DNA from: a virus
Taxonomy: Duplodnaviria; Caudoviricetes
IMG/VR virus record: IMGVR_UViG_3300007539_000018
Span: 2,180 to 66,179 of that record
Length of the DNA: 64,000 nucleotides
Direction: 5' to 3' (one strand)
The notes beneath the pieces are model-generated. The model was not told the origin of the DNA. It saw only the letters and a list, made by a program, of their open reading frames with translations, and did no database searches. Made by a program: the position numbers and the translations under genes. This document shows, piece by piece, positions 6,226 to 49,010 of this stretch (within the stretch, counting starts at the first letter, position 1; each line of letters begins with the position of its first letter).

Positions 6226-6300
6226 GAGCGTGTGGTGTAATGGATAGCATTTTGGCCTTCTAAGCCGAAGATACGGGTTCGATTCCTGTCACGCTCGCCA
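6226..6300 (+). tRNA. tRNA-Arg(UCU)
   Basis: Acceptor stem GAGCGTG/CACGCTC, anticodon arm TTGGC-CTTCTAA-GCCGA, T-loop GTTCGATTC, encoded CCA. Confidence 0.95.
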
Positions 6301-31593: not shown

Positions 31594-32931
31594 TCACTGT
31601 ATGTTTGTTATTTTTCCTTGTCCTTTGAAGAATGAACAACCAACTTCACCAATTGTTCGGTAAAGCGCACGATTGCCCAATGTCCCTACACCAAATGGAT
31701 TTCCGTTTGCGATACCATCCTCAAAGTATTGAGTTGGTTTCATAACGGACAACCAAAGGTGGTCTGTATCAAGGAAAAGCATATCACTTAGTTTGGATGA
31801 AGCCGCACCAGTAGCGGTCATATCCTTAACAGGAATCAAAGGAATATCGTAGTATGTTGCTACTCTAAATCCAACTTCTTGACCCTTTGTTCCTCTTACA
31901 CCATTAACGGTAGGAACAATCTCTTTTCTATCCATAAAGCGTTCTTGGCTTTGTAATAGGTCAGCAAGGGCTTGAATAGTGTCATATCCAGTAAGAATAA
32001 CCTTTGGAGAGCCACCTGCAAGTCGCAAGTTGCGAATCATGTTGTTTAGAAGAGTTAAAGTCAAAGAACGAACATTACCTGCGGTATAGTCTGTTCCGAA
32101 ATCAACCTCTGCATCAAGGAAAGAAGCGGCAGTAAATCGCTCACTACCGTAAATTTTTCCTAATGCGTTTGAAGCAGTAGTAGTATCAGTAGCAAGAACC
32201 CCACCATCAATTAAGAGTAATTCTGCTCTTGATGTAATAACCTTCAACAATGATGAATAGTTGTTACCAATGTTAGGCATAGCGGAAGATTCACCGTAAT
32301 GTTCTAATGGCATAACTAGCATCTTGTTTTGGACTTCAGCGTGGTGCTTACCCATGTCTTCACGCATTTGCGCTCGAATATCTCCGATTCCATCGTCAAT
32401 TTGAGCCATTTCCATAGCCAATTCACTGAAATCGAATTGATGTGCAACAACTTTTGGACTCATGTTTAATTGAGCATAAGTTGGAGCAATTGGGCCTAAT
32501 CCATCTGCGGCAGTTGAAAGACCGGCATTTTCAGGAACACCACCAATCATATCTGCTCTTGGTGAATCCGAACCTAATTCAGCAAGGTTCTCTGTTCCGC
32601 TTGCATCAACGGTAAATAGATTTCCACTTCCACCCGCAGGTCGGCTCTTTAATACTCTCCAACCACTTGAAGAATAAGGTCGCTTTGCAATCATTGAAAG
32701 TGCATTGACTTCTCGGTTTAGCATAGACCAAACCTTTTGTCCGTAAACGATGTTGTATAATGCTGAAACATCGGAAACTCCACTACCGGACAATGATGGA
32801 GAACCATCGTGTCCTGTGTGAATACCACCAACCATACCGGCTTGCTTCAATAAAGCATTACCGGCAGGTAGATTGTTAATTCCGTATGTTTGCGCTTCTA
32901 AGTCTCTAATTGTGTTAATATATCCTGTCAT
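31594..32931 (-). CDS. major capsid protein (HK97 fold)
   Basis: Follows the protease-scaffold; 445 aa; 'VATYYDIPLIP', 'LFLDTDHL' C-terminal pattern. Confidence 0.85.
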   Translation of the reverse strand: MTGYINTIRDLEAQTYGINNLPAGNALLKQAGMVGGIHTGHDGSPSLSGSGVSDVSALYNIVYGQKVWSMLNREVNALSMIAKRPYSSSGWRVLKSRPAGGSGNLFTVDASGTENLAELGSDSPRADMIGGVPENAGLSTAADGLGPIAPTYAQLNMSPKVVAHQFDFSELAMEMAQIDDGIGDIRAQMREDMGKHHAEVQNKMLVMPLEHYGESSAMPNIGNNYSSLLKVITSRAELLLIDGGVLATDTTTASNALGKIYGSERFTAASFLDAEVDFGTDYTAGNVRSLTLTLLNNMIRNLRLAGGSPKVILTGYDTIQALADLLQSQERFMDRKEIVPTVNGVRGTKGQEVGFRVATYYDIPLIPVKDMTATGAASSKLSDMLFLDTDHLWLSVMKPTQYFEDGIANGNPFGVGTLGNRALYRTIGEVGCSFFKGQGKITNIQ

Positions 32932-32943
32932 TTTAAATCACCT

Positions 32944-34167
32944 TCAAATGTTGTTCACCATCTTATGAATATCCGACCACTCCATTTCTGAAATGTCTTC
33001 TAATGATGGGAGTGTAACTGTTGCTTCTTTTTGAGCCTTAATGATTGAATCCTTCTCAGCGGTCAAAGACTTTCGCAATTGCGTAAATTCTTCCTTTAGA
33101 GAAGAAATTTCACTTGCAGCGTCATATTGAGACTTTGCGAGAATGTTTTCACGGTTTGCTCTTTCGGAGTTAAATCGTGTTTCAAAAGACTTTCGTAGAT
33201 TGTCGTAAGCAAGTGCTTCGAGTTGTTCTTCACGGAAAGCGGCGTAAGCCTTTTCAATGTTTGAATTACTCAAATCAAGAGAATCAAATTCATTGTTACT
33301 GAATGCTTTAACAACAGGCATATCCGAAGAAGTCGGCTTACCATTGTTAATTACGATTCGGTCAGCAGGTTCACCAATTTGGTTTCCTGCGCCATCAAGA
33401 GTACGAAGGTATGCTTTGTCTGCTTCTTCATAAGAAGAGTATTCTGCATTTTCTTCTTGTTCTTCCATCTTTTCATCATCCATATCCATGTCTTCTTCAT
33501 CAGCCATTTCTGCGGTTTCTGACATAGAAGCCCTTTCCATCATGTTTTCATCCTCTTCTTCCTCTTTGCGAAGCATATTAACTTCTTCCAAAAGGGTGTC
33601 CAATTCGCTCAGTGCCTTTTCTAGTTTTTCACTCATTTTTTCACTTCCTATATCTTGTTTTAAAATATCGAATTTCGCTTCGGGATTTATGCCTTTTTCA
33701 CATATTGTTACTTCATGGAGTTCTAACTTACTTATTTCGTTATATTCCCCTAATTCATTGTGGCTTTTCTTTACTTTTTGTAATGCTTGTCCACCAATAC
33801 TAAATGACCTTAATGACCCTTTGCGAATGTTTCTTCCTACTTCCTTTGCTTTTTCAATGTCATCTCTTAGTTTAATCACTACAAAGAATCCCACATCATC
33901 TACTTCGGATTTCCATAATTTTCCAGTTTTATCTCTATATGAATCTACGACTTCTCCAACTTGAACATTTGAATGATTAGTCATTACATTTCTAAACTTT
34001 GAATCTCCCATGAATTTTTTAACTGATTCTTGTAATGCTTTTAATGTAATCAAATCGTTTTGTTTATCTACAATTTCAATGCTCGCATATCCACCAATCA
34101 TTAAATCGTCGTTGCTTTTGAGAATGTTGAACTCATCATTCCTTGTAGCCATGACGCTTATACTCAT
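32944..34167 (-). CDS. prohead protease (HK97/S78-like) fused to acidic coiled-coil scaffold
   Basis: 'GYASIEIVDKQND', His in 'MTNHS', Ser in 'SFSIGG', 'LHEVTICEKGINPEA'; acidic helical C-terminal half. Confidence 0.9.
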   Translation of the reverse strand: MSISVMATRNDEFNILKSNDDLMIGGYASIEIVDKQNDLITLKALQESVKKFMGDSKFRNVMTNHSNVQVGEVVDSYRDKTGKLWKSEVDDVGFFVVIKLRDDIEKAKEVGRNIRKGSLRSFSIGGQALQKVKKSHNELGEYNEISKLELHEVTICEKGINPEAKFDILKQDIGSEKMSEKLEKALSELDTLLEEVNMLRKEEEEDENMMERASMSETAEMADEEDMDMDDEKMEEQEENAEYSSYEEADKAYLRTLDGAGNQIGEPADRIVINNGKPTSSDMPVVKAFSNNEFDSLDLSNSNIEKAYAAFREEQLEALAYDNLRKSFETRFNSERANRENILAKSQYDAASEISSLKEEFTQLRKSLTAEKDSIIKAQKEATVTLPSLEDISEMEWSDIHKMVNNI

Positions 34168-34192
34168 GTTGCTCAAACCTTCCTATTGTCTT

Positions 34193-34214: not shown

Positions 34215-36737
34215 CTATTTAGTAGGGAGGGTCAATTCTTTATACCTATCCTCATAGATATTCCACACTCCCCCATCCGATTCATCATCAGCAGGAGTTT
34301 GTTTATATCCCGACCATGCTAGCCACATTTCCTTGTTATCTACTTTAAGCCTTCTAATATTAAACTTAGTTTCAAACTTATTCCCTTCTAAGAAATATTC
34401 GTGATAACCATGCTTTTGTATTCCTAATCTTATGCTACCTTCATCTAGAAGTTTTCTCTTAGAAATGTTATTAGCAATCATAGCAGGGAATTTTCCGGCT
34501 TTACCAAACAACTCAAATATATCGCCATCATCTTCTAAATCAATAAGCCAATTCAATGTTTCGTCTTTAAGTTTAATAACTAAGTTTAAATTATCATCAT
34601 CTCTAAGATATAACTTAAACTTACCATCTCTGTATTCCTTTGGGGTTTTATATTCCTTAAGAATATTTTCTTCTTGTAGTATTTTATCATCTTCCGAATA
34701 AAGTTTATTGGTCTTTTCATCATATGAAATGCCATCTCTTTGCTTCATCCAGTCTTTAAGTTTATCTAATTTACTTTCTAGAATATCTTCGTATAAATCC
34801 TTGTGGTTCTTAACTAAGAAGTTATGTAGTGCTTTGATAGTTTGTGGGCCTTTCGTTTTCATAAACTGAAAACCTGCCACTGTTAAACGAGATTGCTTGG
34901 TTTTCATAATTTCTTCCGCTTGGTGTTTCCATAAATCCAAATCTACTAAAGCGTTTTTAGCCATCAAATTGTCTTCCTCGAAACCATAGATAGTAAACCC
35001 ATCCATGTCTCCTTTAATTAGAATAGAGGCTTCTCCGTGAATATGGTCGGTTATTGTAATCCCTTTTTTAAGGGCTTCAACATTATAATTTAATGATTTT
35101 TCTCCGTCATTGGATAGCATCTCAAGAGTAATCAATTTGTCGGGGTGTCTTGCTTCGGGTAATTCTATAACCTTAGCGGAGTGAACGCTGTATATGTCGC
35201 CCTTCTTCTTAACATGGTCTATTTTTACTCTCACTATGCTTCCTAAGTCAGCACTGATTTTAGTGTTAAGAGCCTTACCAACAAGCATATAGGTTTTACC
35301 TTCTATTTCTTGATAGTGTTTTCCTTCTCCTTCTGTTGGCCCTGCACCCAAAGAATAAGCGTAATTACCACCAGATGATTTCTTATCAAGAACAATCAAA
35401 TCTAAATCAACAAAACTCTTCCATTTAATCCATTTAGGGTTTTTCTTAGTCCCAACATAGTAAGTAGATGTAGAGTCTTTAATGACCACTCCCTCTGCTG
35501 TCGGCATTTCCATTATTGCCCTAGAGTATTCTTCAATATCTTTAATAGAATCTGCTAAACGAGTATCTTTCTTAGAAGGGAAAGTTAAATCTTCACTTGA
35601 ATGAATAGAGTAATTATTAAACATTAATTGCATTCGCTGAGTTAAAGTATCTTCTAGTAGCGATTTTTCATTATGTCTTAGTAAATCAAACATGTGCATT
35701 CTCAATCTACCGTCTGGATTTTTATCATTAAAAACATGAGAAATAGTTTCTGCTCTATCAAGTGCTTCATCCCCCTTAAACAATAACAAAGAACCATCTA
35801 AAATACAATCACCGAAGTGTTTCTTTTCTAATTCTTCTACTTGTTTTTTACACTTAGAAGTAATGTCTTTACCATCAAAAGAGAACACTTTAACCTTCTT
35901 ATCTATTTTTTGCATTTGAATACGAAGCCCGTCATATTTTTCTTGAACATAATATTCGCCACTAAAACCTTTAAGTTCTTTAATATCATCTATTTCAAAA
36001 ATACGATACATTGGTTTATTAGGAACGATAAAATCAGACTGAGATTTCTCTTCACTAGATTTCTTTTCTTCGGCTTTCTTAACAGGCAAGCCCTCAATTT
36101 CTTCTAATTCACTCCATTCACCCTTATCATTCTTAGATAAGAATATTAACTCTAATAGATTCATCGCTGCCTTCACTTTAGATTTGACTTTGTTTGAGTC
36201 TTTTCCATCCCCATAATGTTCTATAATATACAGGTCTATGTCATCCGATTCTAGGTCAAGACCCTTAAGACCCTCCGTAATATCGTCGGGTTCGATGTCT
36301 TTAACAGCGTAAATGTCTGGAGATAGTGCTTTACTGTCTTCTCTAATAGCATAGTGAACGAATTTAACCATGTTACCCGTTGAAGATAACAATGCTTCTA
36401 AGACTTCACCTTTGAATCTTTTAGCGAAAGGGTCATCTATGGATTCGGAAGAATAGCGAAGTTTCTTTATTCCTTCAAATACCTTTTCAGCATTTTGTGA
36501 TTGTGGGTCTTTAACATCGTCTGCTTCTAAATCAGAAATCTCAATAAAGTTCTTTAACTCATTTGAAAGTTGATTATTGTTTTCATAGGCTTCTGTAATA
36601 CCATCTATTGCACTACGCCACTTTGCCCCGTATTCTTTAGGGTCTGTGCGAGCAGATAGATAAGCCACTCTTACTTTTTCAAATAAGCGAACAATTTCAT
36701 CCGATGTGGACTTATCCTTTTCAAGAAGATAAGCCAT
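34215..36737 (-). CDS. lig: ATP-dependent DNA ligase with extra N- and C-terminal domains
   Basis: Motif I QEKYDGLR, III ILDGSL, IIIa MFDLL, IV EGVVIK, V WIKWK, then an OB domain. Confidence 0.9.
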   Translation of the reverse strand: MAYLLEKDKSTSDEIVRLFEKVRVAYLSARTDPKEYGAKWRSAIDGITEAYENNNQLSNELKNFIEISDLEADDVKDPQSQNAEKVFEGIKKLRYSSESIDDPFAKRFKGEVLEALLSSTGNMVKFVHYAIREDSKALSPDIYAVKDIEPDDITEGLKGLDLESDDIDLYIIEHYGDGKDSNKVKSKVKAAMNLLELIFLSKNDKGEWSELEEIEGLPVKKAEEKKSSEEKSQSDFIVPNKPMYRIFEIDDIKELKGFSGEYYVQEKYDGLRIQMQKIDKKVKVFSFDGKDITSKCKKQVEELEKKHFGDCILDGSLLLFKGDEALDRAETISHVFNDKNPDGRLRMHMFDLLRHNEKSLLEDTLTQRMQLMFNNYSIHSSEDLTFPSKKDTRLADSIKDIEEYSRAIMEMPTAEGVVIKDSTSTYYVGTKKNPKWIKWKSFVDLDLIVLDKKSSGGNYAYSLGAGPTEGEGKHYQEIEGKTYMLVGKALNTKISADLGSIVRVKIDHVKKKGDIYSVHSAKVIELPEARHPDKLITLEMLSNDGEKSLNYNVEALKKGITITDHIHGEASILIKGDMDGFTIYGFEEDNLMAKNALVDLDLWKHQAEEIMKTKQSRLTVAGFQFMKTKGPQTIKALHNFLVKNHKDLYEDILESKLDKLKDWMKQRDGISYDEKTNKLYSEDDKILQEENILKEYKTPKEYRDGKFKLYLRDDDNLNLVIKLKDETLNWLIDLEDDGDIFELFGKAGKFPAMIANNISKRKLLDEGSIRLGIQKHGYHEYFLEGNKFETKFNIRRLKVDNKEMWLAWSGYKQTPADDESDGGVWNIYEDRYKELTLPTK

Positions 36738-41123: not shown

Positions 41124-42764
41124 TTAACCAACTCTTCGTTCTGTTCTTGAATCAACATTTTGATTTCCTGCTTCGGCAGGTAATCCAGTCATGCGCTTAT
41201 CCGGCCCTACTTCGTTCCTCGCTTTATTCCTTGTGGCAGGTGGGTTTTCTTGGGGTTTAGAATTACCGCCTTGTAACTGTTGTTCTTGCATTTGTCCCAT
41301 TTGTGAAGCATCTATGTTTGTTCCGGCATAAGGGTCTTGTTGTGATTCTTCACCTTCAGCCGGTTGTTCCGGTTGTTCCGGTTCGGGCTTCTTAAAAGTA
41401 AATTGTCCGTCTTCATCCATATCAACTTCAAATCCTAGATTTTTAATTGAAGCAGCAATATTAACTTCTATCTCTCTTTTACGAAGACCCGCAATTTCAT
41501 CTTCTTCTTCCGATGGAGGAAGTTTTAATTCCCAATCTGTAATACCAAATTGCTTTGTTAAGTAAGGGAAAACATAATTATTATAAACATTTTGTGCCAT
41601 TTGAACTGCACGATTTGTAACAAGTATTTGCATACCTTCATTATTTAATCCACCACTGGTAGTATTGTCAGCCATGAATACTTTACTTACTCCATAGAAT
41701 GCTGATATTCTATCTCTTAAGTCGTCTTTAACTGAAATGTAATCCATTTCTTTAAGAGAGTCCATAAACTTAATCCACTCAACTGCACCTTTACCGCCTT
41801 CGGCTTCAATTCCCATAACAGGAATAAAGTGAGGGTCGGCTTCCATCTTTTCTTTTACACCTCTCCAAAAGGCTCTCATCGAATCCATGTTTCGAGTTTG
41901 AACAGCCAAAAGACCTCTTGGCATTCTACTCTTAGTATATGCTGAATTAACATAATTTTCCATAGCAATAAGAGTCATAATGTGATTATATAGAGTAATA
42001 ACAGGAGAGAACCCATAAAGACGACTTGGGCTGTATTTACTAAAGTGTAATACTTCTCCTTCTAAGAAGTATTGGTCTTCGCCATTTGCTCTATTAACAA
42101 AGTGAACTGGTTTCATATTAGAACCACAGGCTTCACAGGTAGCATAAGGTTCAGTAGATAGCATATTTCTATGGTTAATACAAGTAAATCCTTTTGTTCC
42201 TTTTACTCCGTTCTCATCTGCATAAATAAACATAGTTACTGGGTCGCCTCGATAAATCTCTTTAATGCGGTGCATTCTAATTTTACCATTACCGTCTAAG
42301 AAATACTCCTTAACTAAAACAATATAAGCATCATCCATAGTATTCAAATCATCTTCCAATTCTTTCAATACATCAATGAATAATTGTTCCGAAGGATTAA
42401 CATATCCTTCCAAAAACTTTTCAGCAAATTCCAACTGTTTAACATCAGGTATTCTCAAATCAGTAGATTCACAACGAGAACACTGTTGAACAGGTCTTTT
42501 GTGTTTTTTTCCACAATTGTTACAGATAGCCTCGAATGCTTTTTCCCAAACATAGCCTCTACGGTAAACTTCTTGTTTTAATTGAGTAATACAAGTTCTT
42601 ACAATTACTGACTGTTGCACCATAGAATAAATGATTGGTGCGGTCATCATGTAATTGTTTTGCCTTTCTTGAATACCCATATTGTATATCTGTCTATCAG
42701 CAGGTTTAGGAGTAGAACGCCTAAACAAGTTAGTAAAGGAAAATCTTCTTCTTTCTTCAGCCAT
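41124..42764 (-). CDS. portal protein with zinc-ribbon insertions
   Basis: 'EVLHF..YSPSRLYGFSP', 'RDRISAFYGVS'; position after TerL; CNNC/CSRC and CINH/CEAC insertions. Confidence 0.85.
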   Translation of the reverse strand: MAEERRRFSFTNLFRRSTPKPADRQIYNMGIQERQNNYMMTAPIIYSMVQQSVIVRTCITQLKQEVYRRGYVWEKAFEAICNNCGKKHKRPVQQCSRCESTDLRIPDVKQLEFAEKFLEGYVNPSEQLFIDVLKELEDDLNTMDDAYIVLVKEYFLDGNGKIRMHRIKEIYRGDPVTMFIYADENGVKGTKGFTCINHRNMLSTEPYATCEACGSNMKPVHFVNRANGEDQYFLEGEVLHFSKYSPSRLYGFSPVITLYNHIMTLIAMENYVNSAYTKSRMPRGLLAVQTRNMDSMRAFWRGVKEKMEADPHFIPVMGIEAEGGKGAVEWIKFMDSLKEMDYISVKDDLRDRISAFYGVSKVFMADNTTSGGLNNEGMQILVTNRAVQMAQNVYNNYVFPYLTKQFGITDWELKLPPSEEEDEIAGLRKREIEVNIAASIKNLGFEVDMDEDGQFTFKKPEPEQPEQPAEGEESQQDPYAGTNIDASQMGQMQEQQLQGGNSKPQENPPATRNKARNEVGPDKRMTGLPAEAGNQNVDSRTERRVG

Positions 42765-42928: not shown

Positions 42929-44290
42929 CTATTCCACTCCACCAATCTGTTCCATCGAATCCATCAAGGACATTTTACTATTGCCTTGAAGTTTAGCAAT
43001 ATCATCTAAATATATCCCTTCTTTAAGCCAATCAAAACCTACATGGTCTTTGTGATTTTCCCACTTCATAAGTTTGAATATTTCATCACAGCGGCCTTTA
43101 TACCAGTCTTGTTTCTTATATGATTTTTTCATTCTTATTAACTCAAGGAGTAACTCTGCATTACCTTTCTTTAATCTAAAATGAGGCAAACATTTTGTTA
43201 ATAAATCTGTAACATGGTCTTGCGAATAAAAATTAAGTCTTTGAACAGGCCGTGTATCTTGCGGTGATTTTTGATTTAAATGTAATTTACCAAACCCAAT
43301 TGATTTGTGCATTTCTTCCATAAATGCACGACCCCTATCTCCGGTAGCAATTAAACCGACTCTTGGGTTATGGTTTCTATCCATTGTAATATATCCATCG
43401 GAGTCAATAAATGCAGCAGTATAAGCCCAAATGTTCTTTTTGATTTCATTTGGCATTTTATAATATCCACCATTAACAACAGCGACATCTAATTTTTTAA
43501 CCATTTTAGAAATCATATTAGAAGTAGTGTTCTTATGTAATACAGAAGGCATTTTATCATGGAGTTGTTTTGCTCCAATTCCGGGCTGTTTTCTTATTTC
43601 ACTCTCTATGAAAGAAAGTACTCTTTCTTTCTTTGATTTAACAAGAGACTGGTCGGAAATGTTTTTAATTTCTGCTCTAAAATCTTTCTTTGCTAAACGG
43701 CAAGTCTTTTCGAGAGAAGAGTAATCTTTACCATAAACCATATCTGCTTTCTTTAAGTCATGTTCCCAAAACTTACACAAAGCATCTACTACTTTTCTTC
43801 TTGATTTAACATCTCCCATTTTATTTAGTTTCATCAAATCCTTTTCGTTAAATCTCATTTTGAGTAATGGTTCTTTATATGGACTTAACCAGTAAATAGA
43901 ATCAATACACTTTGAGATATGGTCGGAGTAGCCATCAATAACAGTATCAATTGCTTTAGCCATTCTTACTCTATCTTCTCCTTTTAGTTTTCTTCTTGCT
44001 TTACGCATCTTTCTTACTAAATCTGGAATATTTTCTCCATCAACAACATACTCATTAGGAAAAGAAGAAAGTTGTTTTCTTGCTTCACTAGCATTAATGT
44101 TTAGATTTTTAGATAGAGTATTAACTGCTTCATAATCCGACATAACATAATCAGTAATGCCTTTATTTAGTTCAATGCCGACATCGCTAAGGGCTTGAAC
44201 AACAGGTTTCTTTTCTTCCTGTAACTCTTCTAATTCTTCAATTTCATCTTTTGATTCAATTAAATCTTGTTCTGTAACCATCATAACCAC
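42929..44290 (-). CDS. LAGLIDADG endonuclease-domain protein with long N-terminal helical region
   Basis: 'WAYTAAFIDSDGYI' and 'LPHFRLKK' in the C-terminal third. Confidence 0.8.
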   Translation of the reverse strand: MVMMVTEQDLIESKDEIEELEELQEEKKPVVQALSDVGIELNKGITDYVMSDYEAVNTLSKNLNINASEARKQLSSFPNEYVVDGENIPDLVRKMRKARRKLKGEDRVRMAKAIDTVIDGYSDHISKCIDSIYWLSPYKEPLLKMRFNEKDLMKLNKMGDVKSRRKVVDALCKFWEHDLKKADMVYGKDYSSLEKTCRLAKKDFRAEIKNISDQSLVKSKKERVLSFIESEIRKQPGIGAKQLHDKMPSVLHKNTTSNMISKMVKKLDVAVVNGGYYKMPNEIKKNIWAYTAAFIDSDGYITMDRNHNPRVGLIATGDRGRAFMEEMHKSIGFGKLHLNQKSPQDTRPVQRLNFYSQDHVTDLLTKCLPHFRLKKGNAELLLELIRMKKSYKKQDWYKGRCDEIFKLMKWENHKDHVGFDWLKEGIYLDDIAKLQGNSKMSLMDSMEQIGGVE

Positions 44291-44291
44291 C

Positions 44292-45725
44292 TCAAAAGTT
44301 CACACCTATGACTCCATTACTATGCCGCTTGTACTTGTTGGTAGTGGGCGGTTCAAATATGCCTAAGTCGTCAAGGAGTATGAATGTTTCACTCATTGTA
44401 TGTGTTGCCGCATTCGCCAAGGCAAGGCTCATCACCATATCGTCATGCGCCCCAATGCCCTCAAACTTACCTTTTTCAGTGATAGCAAACATTGATAATT
44501 CTTCAAGTAAAGTCATTGAGACTCTTCTACTTTCTTCGTTACCATAAGGCAAGTTAATCTTTTGATTTTCAAAATTCATTTGGAGGCTCAAAATAATCTC
44601 TTCCTTTTTCTTTCGAGTAGTATTGAAGTCGTGAACATTCAAGTCGCTCACATTTCTTAATTCTTGAGTAAAAGATTTAGCGAAAGTATTTGTTTCAAAT
44701 AGAACAACTTCAGGATGAAACATCTTTCCAATCAATCTAACCTTTTCTATGTTTTCTCTAAACTCTACATTCTTAGAACGGTCAATGAATACAATTGTTT
44801 TATTGTCGTGTTCATCCACTTCTAATACAGTAATAACATTGTAGTCACCATCAGTAGAAATAGCAGGGTCTACTCCAACATAATACTTAAATCCTTCACG
44901 ACGATGTGGCTTAAGAATATGTTCTTTACTCTTTGCTTTTTCTAAATACTCAGGATTAAACAAAGAAGTTCCAGTAGAGATAGGAACGCACAAGTATTCT
45001 CTTGTGAACATTAAAGAACCAACTTCAGCCTTTCTTGCCATTAGTGCATCATAATCCCATCTCTCCGGCCATAGTGGTTCATTGAGAGCATTGAAACAAG
45101 GATATGTTCGGACAGTATAAGCAGGATTTTCCTCAAGTTGTTGGTAAATATCTGTATAACTGAAAGGAGTTCCAATAACTCTCAATGAAGCGGTGTGGTG
45201 AAGTGTTGGTATCATGTCTCCGTAAAACCAATCTGTAACCTTTTGAATACCAGTCATACTAAACTCTTTCAAAGGGTCGTCAATAATAATTTCTTGAGGG
45301 TGTAATCCACGAATCTGTGAACCAACGGAACGCTCTAAGATTTGGTTTCCGTTTGTTAATGTAATATTACCAATAGCCCAACCCCTTGCAGGTTTAAATT
45401 GTTTAAGCATTGGGTGAGTAAACATCTTATCAATGTCTCTCATGTGAACCATTGTCTGTTTTTGGTTCGATGAAATGTAAAGCATTTGATATGGAGGTTC
45501 TTGAAATATTAAATTCCAAACAACCCAACTGTGCATAAATACTGATTTTCCGTGGTCTCTTGAACAAACAATAACAGTTCTTTGTGTATCATTCATTAAT
45601 TCAAGCCACTCTTGTTGGTATTTAGGAAACATAAAACCTAGAACATTTTGAAAGAAATAGGGGAAGGAGTTTTTGGATAACTCCATATCCATTTGATGTT
45701 CAAAGTTAAAGGCTTCTATTTCCAT
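44292..45725 (-). CDS. terL: terminase large subunit
   Basis: Walker A 'SRDHGKS', Walker B 'IIIDDP', 'IGTP', nuclease 'GVDPA' and 'HDDMVMS'. Confidence 0.92.
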   Translation of the reverse strand: MEIEAFNFEHQMDMELSKNSFPYFFQNVLGFMFPKYQQEWLELMNDTQRTVIVCSRDHGKSVFMHSWVVWNLIFQEPPYQMLYISSNQKQTMVHMRDIDKMFTHPMLKQFKPARGWAIGNITLTNGNQILERSVGSQIRGLHPQEIIIDDPLKEFSMTGIQKVTDWFYGDMIPTLHHTASLRVIGTPFSYTDIYQQLEENPAYTVRTYPCFNALNEPLWPERWDYDALMARKAEVGSLMFTREYLCVPISTGTSLFNPEYLEKAKSKEHILKPHRREGFKYYVGVDPAISTDGDYNVITVLEVDEHDNKTIVFIDRSKNVEFRENIEKVRLIGKMFHPEVVLFETNTFAKSFTQELRNVSDLNVHDFNTTRKKKEEIILSLQMNFENQKINLPYGNEESRRVSMTLLEELSMFAITEKGKFEGIGAHDDMVMSLALANAATHTMSETFILLDDLGIFEPPTTNKYKRHSNGVIGVNF

Positions 45726-45734
45726 AATATCACC

Positions 45735-46259
45735 TTATTCTGTAATTCCCCAGTCATCCACATTGTCTAAGTGTTCTATTCTTTCATTCATGTATGCTAA
45801 TACATCATCAGGAATAGTTTTATGAGTTTTAGGTTTATTTAAGTCAAGTCCTAATTTTTTACGCATTCCAGTAAATCCTGCAATTCTTGGCATTCCTTTT
45901 ATTGGAGTTAATGCTTTTTCTCTTACTTCTCTCATTAATCCTTTACCTCGATAATCGGGGTGTGTTTTAGCACCACCAAAATAAGCATAGGGGCGGCCTT
46001 CTTTTCCTGTTTCAATTGCATTACCAACTACTGTAACTAATCTATTTTTTCCACCTTCTGTAACAATCATACCAAACCAATTATCAATAGGATATTTCCA
46101 TTTATTCTCGGAACGAAGTGTATGTGGCATATCGGGATTGCTTGCATCCCAAAGTTCTTTCATAGACTCTTCATCACCAAGTTGAATAACTTTGATTTTT
46201 TCATCCCCTGCCAACCTTCTAAGGTCGGGATGAAACTTAATGATGTGCCACCAACTCAT
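45735..46259 (-). CDS. GNAT-family acetyltransferase with leader MSWWHIIK
   Basis: Acetyl-CoA motif 'THPDYRGKGLMR'. Confidence 0.75.
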   Translation of the reverse strand: MSWWHIIKFHPDLRRLAGDEKIKVIQLGDEESMKELWDASNPDMPHTLRSENKWKYPIDNWFGMIVTEGGKNRLVTVVGNAIETGKEGRPYAYFGGAKTHPDYRGKGLMREVREKALTPIKGMPRIAGFTGMRKKLGLDLNKPKTHKTIPDDVLAYMNERIEHLDNVDDWGITE

Positions 46260-46263
46260 AATA

Positions 46264-46713
46264 TCACCATTTTACTTTGTTTGCCCAATAAGCGGCACTT
46301 GTCGGGCCTCTCTTAATGTTCTTTTGATGTCGGCTCTTAAATGATTTGCGCTTTGCTTTCATTCTTTTGCTTTCACCTTTCTTTGGTTTTCCGGCTACAC
46401 TTGCGCCTTGTTCACCAAATCGAATTGTTTTTGTTTTCTTGCCGTCTTTAACAACAACAACATGAGATTTCTTAGGATGCTTTGGTGTTCTCTTTGGCTT
46501 ACTAAAACCGGAAACTCCTGCTCTCTTTAATGCAGGGTGTTTCTTTCTAAGTAGTTTAAAGTCCTCGGCATCCAACTTTCCGTTCTTATTTTTATCAAGT
46601 TTCTTTTGCTTAGGACTTAAAGCCTTATTTGTTTTCTCTCTACAAGTTGCACAATCGCAACCCATTTTTTCTGTGCCACAATGGGCTTTTAAAACTTCTT
46701 TCCATTTACTCAT
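46264..46713 (-). CDS. basic modular protein with EF-hand-like motif; leader MSKWKEVLK
   Basis: 'LDKNKNGKLDAEDFKLL'; C-terminal 'IRFGEQG...SFKSRH...SAAYWANKVKW' recalled from marine phage proteins. Confidence 0.7.
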   Translation of the reverse strand: MSKWKEVLKAHCGTEKMGCDCATCREKTNKALSPKQKKLDKNKNGKLDAEDFKLLRKKHPALKRAGVSGFSKPKRTPKHPKKSHVVVVKDGKKTKTIRFGEQGASVAGKPKKGESKRMKAKRKSFKSRHQKNIKRGPTSAAYWANKVKW

Positions 46714-47332: not shown

Positions 47333-47736
47333 GATTTTCCCTTCCTTTTTGGATAAGTTTTACAAGCGGCACAAGTTGGCCTACATCTTCTTTTAGTTCC
47401 CTTAGAAGCATCTGTTCTTCCGCAAGGTTTTTCTCCTTTTTTATCATCTTCACATGATTGACAAGAAACCCAACCTTTTTGACCATCTCCGCCTCTTCTT
47501 GAGAACCAACCGTGTAATCCCGATTCTTTTTCTCTTTTGAAATTATCTCCGCCTTTCTTTAGTTTTCCTTGACGGCAACGGGTCATATATCCTGATTTAT
47601 ATGCTGAACCTTTTAATCCATATGATTCATCAGCATTTAAAGCACAAGTATCTTTTTCCTCGCCCTTGCTGTTGTGAGTAGCAGTAGCCTTACCTGCCTT
47701 TTTCTTCTTTAATACTTCAAACCAAAGTTCAGTCAT
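47329..47736 (-). CDS. Cys-rich basic modular protein; leader MTELWFEVLK
   Basis: 'SAYKSGYMTRCRQGK' and 'GLHGWF...GWV...KPCGR...CRP' modules recalled from marine phage proteins. Confidence 0.7.
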   Translation of the reverse strand: MTELWFEVLKKKKAGKATATHNSKGEEKDTCALNADESYGLKGSAYKSGYMTRCRQGKLKKGGDNFKREKESGLHGWFSRRGGDGQKGWVSCQSCEDDKKGEKPCGRTDASKGTKRRCRPTCAACKTYPKRKGKS

Positions 47737-49010
47737 TACTTTTCACCTCGGCTTTGGTCTTCAACATCATACCTTTCAGTGCTTGAGCGAAGCATTTCAT
47801 CTTGAATACCTAATAAACAATTATATCTTCGTTCTGGAAACTTAAGACCAATATTCAAATACATATCCACCATGTTTTTATTAATCTTCCCTAAATTAGA
47901 ATACCTAACAAACTTTTGTTTATTTCCCATTAAATACTTGTCATCTCGAATAACTTTAATTAGACCTTTCCACATACCTTTAGTGATTTTTTTATTAGAC
48001 ATTTTAATTTTATTTTTTCGGGCCTTAACCAAATCAAACCAACTCCCTGTATTAGACTTAATCCACTTTTGTACTTGGTCTGCGTATTTGGTATCTTTTA
48101 GTTCTTCTCGGATTTCTTCGGGAAGTTCTTCAACTTTCATATCCGTAAATCCTCTTTTTCTAAATGAACCCCGTTCTGCTAATTCTTCATTAGCAACATT
48201 GATATACAAGGTTTTCCTTCCTTTCTCAGATAGAACCTTTTGAACACATAAACCAAATAGGCCCTTTCCTTTGTAGCCTTCTCTTGTATGAATACCTGCG
48301 CCAAGTAAGACACTCTTATACTTTGCTATTCCACAAACTGCTACGGGAGTTTCACCATCAAATGCTACAAACATTGTTGCCGGTGCATTTGCCCAAATAG
48401 AATCCCTTGAAAGGTTTGGGCCATAGCGCATACTTCTTTTCACATAATCAAAGTAGCCATCATCATTAAATGCTTTAACTGCGGCATCTTCGGACATCTC
48501 CTTGAAAGTAATATCACTTTCAGTATAGGTTTGCTTCTTGAAAGTAAGCCTTTGTCCTGTCGGGAAATCAGTAGAATATTCAGCATTTGCATCAAACACC
48601 ATTGTTCTATATTTATCCTCTATTTTTCCTTCGGGCGTAACAAAACTTGCACCTGTTTCATTTTTATTAGAAACTGCTATGGATTGTTGTTTATATTTAG
48701 CAGACAATTTATGAATTTTTTTCATTAAGTCTTCGGGAACATTAGTAAGCATAAAAGAAGGTTCTAATTCCCATTCAGCATTACCGGTAGCACTTGTAAT
48801 GGTAAACTGTGGCCTTTTCTTTTTTCTTAACTGTATATTTAACTCCTTTAAATCTTTAAGGAGAGCATCACTTAATCGGGATAATTCTTTACTTGGAGTC
48901 GGTTTGTTTGCTTCTTTAGCAGCAATAAAAACATTACTGTTTTTCTTGCGAAGGTTTCTTCTTATCTGCTTCTTATTATAGGCAGGAAGAGTAGTCTGTC
49001 GCTTCTTCAT
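47736..49010 (-). CDS. multidomain protein: T3 SAM-lyase-like domain + GNAT + C-terminal module
   Basis: 'TG..E.ELEPSF...KLSAKYKQQSIAV' (SAMase/DUF3293-like); GNAT 'HTREGYKGKGLF'; internal SWFDLVK. Confidence 0.6.
   Translation of the reverse strand: MKKRQTTLPAYNKKQIRRNLRKKNSNVFIAAKEANKPTPSKELSRLSDALLKDLKELNIQLRKKKRPQFTITSATGNAEWELEPSFMLTNVPEDLMKKIHKLSAKYKQQSIAVSNKNETGASFVTPEGKIEDKYRTMVFDANAEYSTDFPTGQRLTFKKQTYTESDITFKEMSEDAAVKAFNDDGYFDYVKRSMRYGPNLSRDSIWANAPATMFVAFDGETPVAVCGIAKYKSVLLGAGIHTREGYKGKGLFGLCVQKVLSEKGRKTLYINVANEELAERGSFRKRGFTDMKVEELPEEIREELKDTKYADQVQKWIKSNTGSWFDLVKARKNKIKMSNKKITKGMWKGLIKVIRDDKYLMGNKQKFVRYSNLGKINKNMVDMYLNIGLKFPERRYNCLLGIQDEMLRSSTERYDVEDQSRGEK

Follow-up and report, generated by a model that had tools for sequence, protein, structure and literature searches.

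A divergent T3-type SAM-lyase-like domain joined to a predicted GNAT module in a late-operon protein of a magrovirus

Introduction

Bacteriophages related to T3 express S-adenosylmethionine (SAM) lyases early, as a counter to restriction and BREX, and lately SAM-AMP lyases have come to light around type III CRISPR systems. Here we describe a SAM-lyase-like domain encoded by a minus-strand open reading frame (ORF; 47736..49010, 424 residues plus stop, ATG start) in a 64,000-nucleotide stretch of viral DNA (positions 2,180 to 66,179 of IMG/VR record IMGVR_UViG_3300007539_000018), hereafter the window; in this protein the domain is followed by a predicted acetyltransferase of the GNAT type and by a third module. 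The T3 enzyme (SAMase) has been reported to be a monomer folded into a barrel of nine strands with two helices on its outside, and its E68Q/Q94A double mutant to yield no detectable methylthioadenosine (MTA) (10.1101/2023.02.27.530186). In the account given for Svi3-3, strict conservation across active SAMases is limited to Gly56, Glu69 and Gln104, and mutants of E69, whose T3 equivalent is E68, lose activity 1,500- to 4,500-fold (Guo et al. 2021, PMC7877911). The catalytic Glu (Svi3-3 E69, T3 E68) lies at the end of the T-loop, Gly56 of Svi3-3 packs on the ribose and the conserved Gln (Svi3-3 Q104, T3 Q94) belongs to the B-loop. When SAM lyases are compared with SAM-AMP lyases, no residues other than this Glu and Gln are reported to be structurally conserved (Chi et al. 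2025, PMC12255297).

Proteins that counteract host defences can also travel with the virion. The capsid targeting sequence (CTS) of phage T4 is found on diverse anti-restriction internal proteins, IPI* among them (PMC3012670), and the Dar proteins of P1 are a precedent for packaged and injected anti-restriction functions (PMC9024508). GNATs occur in the polyvalent proteins of conjugative elements and phages, for which injection into the host has been proposed and of which a paucity is described in archaea (Iyer et al. 2017, PMC5512222). Among marine viruses, an ATP-dependent DNA ligase and a LAGLIDADG/homing-type nuclease embedded in the head module have been given as the signature of magrovirus groups A and B (Philosof et al. 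2017, PMC5434244).

Results

The first 160 residues of the protein (48531..49010, minus strand; hereafter the N-module) were modelled with AlphaFold2 without templates on A1, an alignment of 28 of the 30 non-redundant N-modules from which P0090, a fragment, and P0109, with a divergent C-terminal half, were left out. The model (predicted local distance difference test score, pLDDT, 93.3; predicted template-modelling score, pTM, 0.89) consists of nine strands and two long helices. In a VIA-align search of 48,161 PDB chains, independent of Foldseek, the only chain with a Z of at least 8 was the T3 SAM lyase 7ock_L (Z 13.2, root-mean-square deviation 2.4 Å over 129/152 residues, model residues 21-160 on chain residues 8-152), the runner-up reaching Z 6.6, Svi3-3 Z 6.3 and the SAM-AMP lyase Z 5.4. 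Foldseek, run against 350,542 PDB chains, filled ranks 1-6 with Svi3-3 (6zm9, 6znb) and T3 (8bb1_E; 7ock_K, J, L), with template-modelling (TM) scores of up to 0.63/0.68 for the T3 chains, and had the SAM-AMP lyase at rank 9. A sequence-only reading of this locus had aligned the N-terminal part with T3 SAMase by eye and had proposed a structure search as its check; both the domain and the predicted fold match were borne out. The model displays the fold of the phage SAM lyase family, that is, a ferredoxin-like core elaborated into the nine-stranded T3-type barrel with two helices. Homology of the N-module to T3-type SAM lyases is in our judgement very nearly certain, and the model is best explained by the N-module being a highly diverged representative of the phage SAM-lyase superfamily, with the monomeric barrel of the T3 type.

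Among viral models, 32 entries of BFVD matched the N-module at E<=0.001, including annotated S-adenosyl-L-methionine hydrolases of T7-like Vibrio and Pectobacterium phages, and a DUF3293 protein of an uncultured phage stood at rank 37. At ranks 20, 32 and 45 the fold was found within polyvalent or structural proteins of bacterial phages, 1,047 to 1,477 residues long. It is likewise a single domain within A0A6J5P8Z9, A0A6J5NIF3, A0A7D7K093 and A0A0C5AMW7, which are large proteins (ART-PolyVal-like, 'large polyvalent protein associated' or structural) from bacterial phages and from a cyanophage. Injected polyvalent proteins may thus contain SAM-lyase-like domains more widely than has been remarked.

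Family profiles, weak taken by themselves, point in the same direction as the fold. On the whole protein, Pfam returned S-AdoMet_lyase (PF23780; E 0.0016, residues 76-133) and DUF3293 (PF11697; E 0.011, residues 55-111), both below their cut-offs. When the 28 aligned family members were scanned singly, 20 matched S-AdoMet_lyase (best E 6.6e-6) and 24 matched DUF3293 at E<=0.01 (best E 3.7e-7), every other Pfam family being reached by at most one of the 28; a precomputed PF23780 match exists in three orthologues. The comparison with DUF3293 suggested by the earlier reading held in this way for the family, the window protein itself staying below the cut-off. The ORF is as that reading had placed it, and all the T3 motifs that it had quoted (VLVSAFR, LTGCYRE, EEKTVRV, RLACNEWEQDCVLV, TAGLVYAKG and FTIDEFGRRWQV) are present in T3 gene 0.3 (NC_003298). 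Identity of the N-module to the T3 SAM lyase is 9-14%, and the resemblance exceeds chance.

Five columns of A1 are invariant: G76, E83, Q108, G128 and T147. Because the profile-profile alignments were not significant, residue equivalence with T3 rests on the coordinates of the PF23780 hidden Markov model (HMM), which we used as a ruler by scanning fragments cut at chosen residues for the columns at which they align. T3 fragments beginning at G55, E68 and Q94 start at columns 39, 52 and 78. Two window fragments, beginning at residues 76 and 83, put E83 (codon 48762..48764, minus strand; invariant in 28/28) on column 52, that of T3 E68. Likewise Q108 (codon 48687..48689, minus strand; invariant in 28/28) falls on column 78, that of T3 Q94, since residues 3-31 of a fragment cut from residue 103 align without gaps to columns 75-103; hhalign, its alignments being non-significant, nonetheless pairs Q108 with T3 Q94. 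As judged from these columns, the catalytic Glu and Gln are in register between the N-module and T3. The counterpart of the conserved Gly is less certain: the invariant G76, at the end of strand 2, sits on column 45 and not on column 39, where T3 G55 sits, because the hairpin loop from G76 to E83 is six residues shorter than that of T3.

We hold it somewhat probable that the N-module cleaves SAM or a very close analogue. Several results weigh against this reading. Neither gathering threshold was reached, PF23780 giving 20.6 bits on the whole protein (18.8-21.3 for the protein or its parts) against 28 required, and DUF3293 giving 19.1 bits on the window N-module against 25. The N-module family profile retrieved nothing at E<=10 from PDB sequences; hhalign, run with the family against T3 SAMase by itself and against a set of 16 T3-family proteins, stayed at a probability below 1%, and a forced global alignment to T3 joined only six end residues. 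Besides the shortened loop before the Glu, the Tyr found two positions after the conserved Gly in Svi3-3 (Y58) and T3 (Y57) is A, S or G throughout the N-module family; W80, four positions after the Gly, is nearly invariant and might take the place of the missing Tyr.

The lost Tyr bears on a lesser rival, in which fold, Glu and Gln are kept and the substrate is not SAM but SAM-AMP (an anti-type III CRISPR activity, as for the AcrIIIB4 candidate) or some other nucleoside or sulfonium molecule. Glu and Gln are all that SAM and SAM-AMP lyases share, the SAM-AMP lyase is itself among the fold matches, and a phage SAM-AMP lyase fusion is reported to cleave SAM-AMP and not SAM (PMC12255297). However, the Z of 13.2 sets the model far nearer to the T3 barrel than to Svi3-3 (6.3) or to the SAM-AMP lyase, a trimer of PII type (5.4), and we consider a change of substrate improbable. 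A second lesser rival would make the N-module a non-catalytic binder, acting either as an inhibitor of the host's SAM synthetase, in the way that T3 SAMase inhibits MetK, or as an inert structural, scaffold-like capsid filler. T3 E68Q/Q94A is described as retaining part of its anti-BREX effect through binding of MetK by the N-terminal tail (10.1101/2023.02.27.530186). The N-module family has a strongly conserved N-terminal tail of its own, QTTL..(F/Y)D, ahead of strand 1. Nevertheless, invariance of exactly both catalytic columns in sequences down to about 30% identity would be unexpected in a mere binder, and we also count against this rival that archaeal SAM synthetase is very unlike bacterial MetK; a purely binding role is, in our estimation, quite improbable.

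Residues ~166-322 (48045..48515, minus strand) are predicted to be a GNAT, in keeping with what the sequence-only reading had placed after the lyase-like domain. Acetyltransf_1 (PF00583) matched residues 205-288 of the window protein at E 0.0043 (17.8 bits; cut-off 20.7), and homologues about 50% identical over this module carry PF00583, PF13508 and PF13673. AlphaFold2 gave a poor model of the full-length protein (pLDDT 62.1, pTM 0.40), without a match at E<=0.001 in the PDB search and uninformative on domain packing and on the fold of the third module; residues 211-263 of it nevertheless show a strand-strand-strand-helix pattern, and its weak Foldseek rows are nearly all GNATs, protein and polyamine acetyltransferases included. 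The acetyl-CoA pyrophosphate loop of GNATs has the consensus (R/Q)-x-x-G-x-(G/A). A stretch resembling this loop, HTREGYKGKGLFG, occupies residues 241-253, with K247-G-K-G250-L-F252 in the window protein and (K/R)-(G/K)-(K/R)-G-L-(F/A/S/T/V) in its relatives. The motif SWFDLVK follows at residues 323-329 (48024..48044, minus strand), where the earlier reading had a third module begin; this leader-like junction is a putative prohead-protease site, and in the full-length alignment no columns other than its W324 and K329 come close to invariance. Behind it, residues 330-424 (47739..48023, minus strand) make up the C-module, predicted to be helical, for which Pfam and PHROGs returned no match and an Atlas structure search no usable one.

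Comparison of relatives showed that the three parts move independently. A word-indexed search retrieved 83 relatives; when residues 1-170 were searched exhaustively against 1.84 billion representatives, only 40 reached E<=0.001, among them a spurious repeat protein, which was dropped. Left out of all counts as spurious was P0096, a repeat protein of 1,954 residues with 27 matched stretches. Local alignments and a census of 109 proteins, for which the query was P0001 (identical to the window protein except for residue 349 of the C-module, D in place of G), resolved three independent units, N (1-160), G (~166-322) and C (330-424), in the arrangements G-C (22 proteins), x-N-x (20), N-G-C (19), G-x (13), N-x (8), x-N (6), N alone (6), C-N-x (5), N-C (4), x-N-G-C (2) and N-x-C (1), the C-module also occurring at the N-terminus or with other modules. 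Because the units shuffle so freely, the lyase-GNAT fusion is a feature of one clade (at least 65% identity to the window protein) and no fixed pairing. P0028 (416 residues; a cluster of 27) has N- and C-modules as in the window protein and another middle unit of similar length in place of the GNAT, which is evidence of cassette exchange inside one gene.

In more distant IMG/VR relatives (19 loci) the N-module forms part of polyproteins that reach 1,205 residues and about ten junctions, the units of which are each bracketed by a repeated junction such as GEPMDIAFQLLK. Junctions were counted on 68 of 71 N-modules, the three N-terminally truncated ones being dropped: 43 of the 68 directly follow a hydrophobic-hydrophobic-Lys sequence, 14, belonging to the window's clade, stand at a protein start (MKKR, MKINKK or MTIQKK), and the remainder follow Lys-ending variants. 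Pfam, run on nine polyproteins, matched only the DUF3293/S-AdoMet_lyase stretch. One such polyprotein, of 1,191 to 1,205 residues, is encoded at L016:43-3615 (+), on an IMG/VR contig of 108,650 bases; it has about ten EPMD(I/L)A(M/F)RLLK junction repeats, and one of its units is an N-module, the others being without a Pfam match at E<=0.01. Many polyproteins (L004, L012-L014, L017-L020; P0057-P0083) end in a recurrent unit, …SPEA..HKLEYD..YES.P.RVKYRE.LNRERRRRG…DVSHT.GGKLTLE..H.NRARHFK..GTL, likewise without a Pfam match.

The gene belongs to a long, tightly spaced minus-strand run extending through the terminase and head genes. It starts 4 nt past the stop of an upstream 861-residue ORF and overlaps by one base the start of a downstream 135-residue ORF. 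About 2 kb downstream on the same strand lies the large terminase gene (TerL; 44292..45725; PHROG terminase, E 5e-56), a relative position kept in distant relatives, and it is followed by a nuclease-like ORF (42929-44290; IDSDGY motif read in the sequence) between TerL and portal (41124-42764), an ATP-dependent DNA ligase (34215-36737) between portal and protease, a prohead serine protease of the Peptidase_S78 family with a scaffold-like tail (32944..34176, minus strand) and a major capsid protein of SU10 type (31594-32931). Because this head module has the embedded ligase and an inserted homing-type nuclease, as expected of magroviruses, the label of archaeal virus given to the window by the earlier reading is accepted at the magrovirus level, the host itself having been deduced, not demonstrated, in the publication concerned (PMC5434244). 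A search of 50,697 phage records gave no evidence on the host, as the window TerL matched only bacterial phages, at identities of at most 28%; tblastn of the whole protein against the same records returned zero matches. The virus record is 66 kb long and an estimated 72% complete.

Some neighbouring features may be recorded here. A tRNA-Arg gene (anticodon TCT, 6226-6300, plus strand) lies where plus-strand genes give way to minus-strand genes. Another GNAT-like ORF, unrelated to the first, lies immediately upstream of the terminase gene (45735-46259, minus strand; Acetyltransf_9, E 0.0056) and begins with the leader MSWWHIIK; one RNA-library contig (run X17, depth 2.6) skips 537 bases at 45723-46261, roughly this ORF, and may come from a strain without it. 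Next to it, a leader-bearing ORF of 149 residues (46264-46713, minus strand) has a weak EF-hand-like stretch at residues 37-57 and matches PHROG 7595 (unknown function; E 2.3e-37) over its last 93 residues, a module that it shares with bacteriophages. In one related locus, an HMGL-like gene of the HMG-CoA lyase family (L014:3620-4465, plus strand) lies about 2 kb upstream of the polyprotein and was the sole Pfam match among ten neighbours; this auxiliary gene type has been reported for magroviruses (PMC10160649).

Discussion

The best single account of these results is, in our view, that of an injected SAM lyase-GNAT effector which blunts SAM-dependent defences. A three-module late magrovirus protein would be made alongside the head proteins and taken into the procapsid. 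Its first module would most likely still bind SAM and split it into MTA and homoserine lactone, through E83 and Q108, and the second, the GNAT, would stay covalently attached to it and probably acetylate a host protein or a small amine. An HK97-type prohead protease would cut after K329; when the next cell is infected, the pieces would exit together with the DNA, and the lyase would lower SAM before any viral gene is expressed, blunting the SAM-dependent defences. We put this account as a whole at slightly short of an even chance, which is more than the product of the odds of its steps because the steps are judged to be positively linked.

Loading of the protein into capsids and its delivery are suggested by its surroundings and by analogy with the packaged proteins cited above, and we likewise rate this part at just under even. 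The motif M-x-W-x-x-[IL]-[ILV]-K opens at least 16 ORFs on the minus strand of the window, and the gene lies among them and the head genes. The protease domain has FNILK|S (residues ~15-20) before it and FDILK|Q (~175-180) after it, and the capsid protein has GNALLK|QA at residue 29; as these head-protein sites resemble WFDLVK|A, it is a reasonable reading of the sequences that the S78 prohead protease would cut after Lys at such places. The ...LLK junctions of the distant polyproteins and the N-terminal leader are similar to them as well. Orthologues about 66% identical to the window protein (P0008, P0014-P0020) carry the leader MDNILAILK|RQTTL. Furthermore, at L005 and L007-L009 the N-module polyprotein lies 3-4 kb upstream of the TerL-nuclease-portal cluster (TerL 35-38% and portal 49% identical).

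The main rival keeps the SAM-lyase chemistry and dispenses with packaging, so that the enzyme would act late in the producing cell, for example by shutting down methylation of the host or of superinfecting elements, by altering polyamine and methionine salvage through MTA, or by keeping progeny DNA unmethylated. The window copy begins with MKKRQTTL and lacks the N-terminal leader of internal proteins of the T4 CTS type, and the GNAT-only relatives also start without a leader; the position of the gene, moreover, speaks to timing and not to location. Against an enzyme confined to the producing cell stand the internal WFDLVK, the leader on the orthologues, the company of leader-bearing ORFs and head genes, and the N-modules of other lineages lying between polyprotein junctions, which are most sensible if a capsid protease processes them. 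On balance we regard action in the producing cell as unlikely.

Returning to the injected effector, the leaderless starts just mentioned count against it, as do the following points. No junction separates the N-module from the GNAT (…GQRLTFKKQTYTESDITFKEMSED…), and therefore the lyase-like domain and the GNAT would stay joined and only the C-module be cut off, which argues against a cargo role for this copy; of the cargo polyprotein proposed by the sequence-only reading, the modular, polyprotein-like character of the family has stood, whereas this copy has neither an N-terminal leader nor a junction between N-module and GNAT. The gene lies in a late head operon, whereas that of T3 SAMase is the first early gene. 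In favour of the account, on the other hand, no family of DNA methyltransferases was found in the 66-kb record, so that SAM depletion is not obviously harmful to the virus; with the record about 72% complete, this proves little. Sequencing runs matching the sequence comprised 16 of DNA (possible sources, hence not independent) and two recorded as RNA (shares 0.27 and 0.16), and two metatranscriptome runs, X17 and X19, yielded short contigs with 0-2 differences over parts of the N-module; such contigs do not show transcription, as DNA can be present and they reveal neither strand nor level. A literature search on restriction-modification in Poseidoniales found nothing relevant.

Each of the ingredients was known before: SAM lyases, polyvalent proteins that carry GNATs, and anti-restriction proteins targeted to the capsid. 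What is new is a SAM-lyase-like subfamily in magroviruses, divergent enough to fall below the Pfam thresholds and unmatched in 50,697 deposited phage genomes, its place in a late head operon and in junction-separated polyproteins, and its fusion to a GNAT. The main texts of the magrovirus papers examined make no mention of such a protein (looked for under adenosylmethionine and GNAT in all of them and under restriction, lyase, leader and anti-defence in part of them), the only matches being an unrelated HMG-CoA lyase, 'acetyltransferase' in a reference list and 'sam' within words; their supplements may list such annotations.

It is tempting to speculate that tagging and cutting of cargo is a general system of magroviruses and of marine viruses related to them, in which a short ...W..ILK/...LLK peptide would load strings of unrelated enzymes that the prohead protease then separates, with the SAM lyase as a recurrent cargo ejected with the genome to destroy the SAM pool of a tiny host in the first moments of infection and the lyase-GNAT as one such injected effector; in this generality the proposal leans toward the unlikely. 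If true, it would provide the first metabolite-depleting enzyme carried as virion cargo and the first SAM lyase of an archaeal virus, and the welded lyase and GNAT could conceivably work on coupled substrates, for instance homoserine lactone or a SAM-using host protein. A T3-type fold with both catalytic residues in abundant surface-ocean archaeal viruses would extend this form of counter-defence to the archaeal virosphere, and would suggest another mode of delivery, pre-made and injected and not expressed first. In addition, some of the many unannotated genes of magroviruses would gain a concrete function open to assay, and the defences used by their uncultured hosts would become easier to approach.

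Known systems resemble this locus to different degrees. The DUF3293 family (PF11697) matches over a stretch that holds E83 and Q108; it has no known function, and T3 SAMase itself has no DUF3293 match at E<=1. Svi3-3 (6ZM9) and the C. botulinum SAM-AMP lyase (9GAB) or candidate AcrIIIB4 share the ferredoxin-like core and the Glu/Gln pair, and the AcrIIIB4 candidate is, like the window protein, a fusion (PMC12255297), but Svi3-3 and the SAM-AMP lyase are trimeric, PII-type proteins with inter-subunit sites and match less well (Z 6.3 and 5.4; TM 0.31-0.39). T4 IPI* and the P1 Dar proteins share the principle of short N-terminal tags on unrelated proteins that are loaded into the prohead, processed and injected against restriction. 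Their cargoes, unlike a metabolite-destroying enzyme, are inhibitors or DNA-modifying proteins, and in the window virus, where the cargo role is read from genes alone, the tag also occurs internally, as a junction. Polyvalent proteins combine unrelated enzymatic modules, GNATs included, in one chain encoded with structural genes and are proposed to enter the host with the DNA (PMC5512222); the main text of that paper does not contain SAMase, SAM hydrolase, DUF3293 or adenosylmethionine. The window protein is of this kind in joining a lyase-like domain, a GNAT and a C-module in one chain beside terminase and head genes, whereas its type of modules is split by a short ...LLK junction and no in-built peptidase domain was found in it. 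From the T3 SAM lyase (gp0.3; 7OCK, 8BB1; PF23780), finally, it differs in its extra conserved N-terminal tail, in its fusion to a GNAT and a third module, in the shorter loop before the Glu, in the loss of the Tyr, in a score below the Pfam threshold and in the setting of its gene, which for T3 is the start of the early region of a bacterial podovirus and here a late operon of a presumed archaeal virus. Both are nonetheless viral proteins in which the nine-stranded barrel with two outer helices is matched over the whole length of the T3 enzyme and in which Glu and Gln fall on the same HMM columns.

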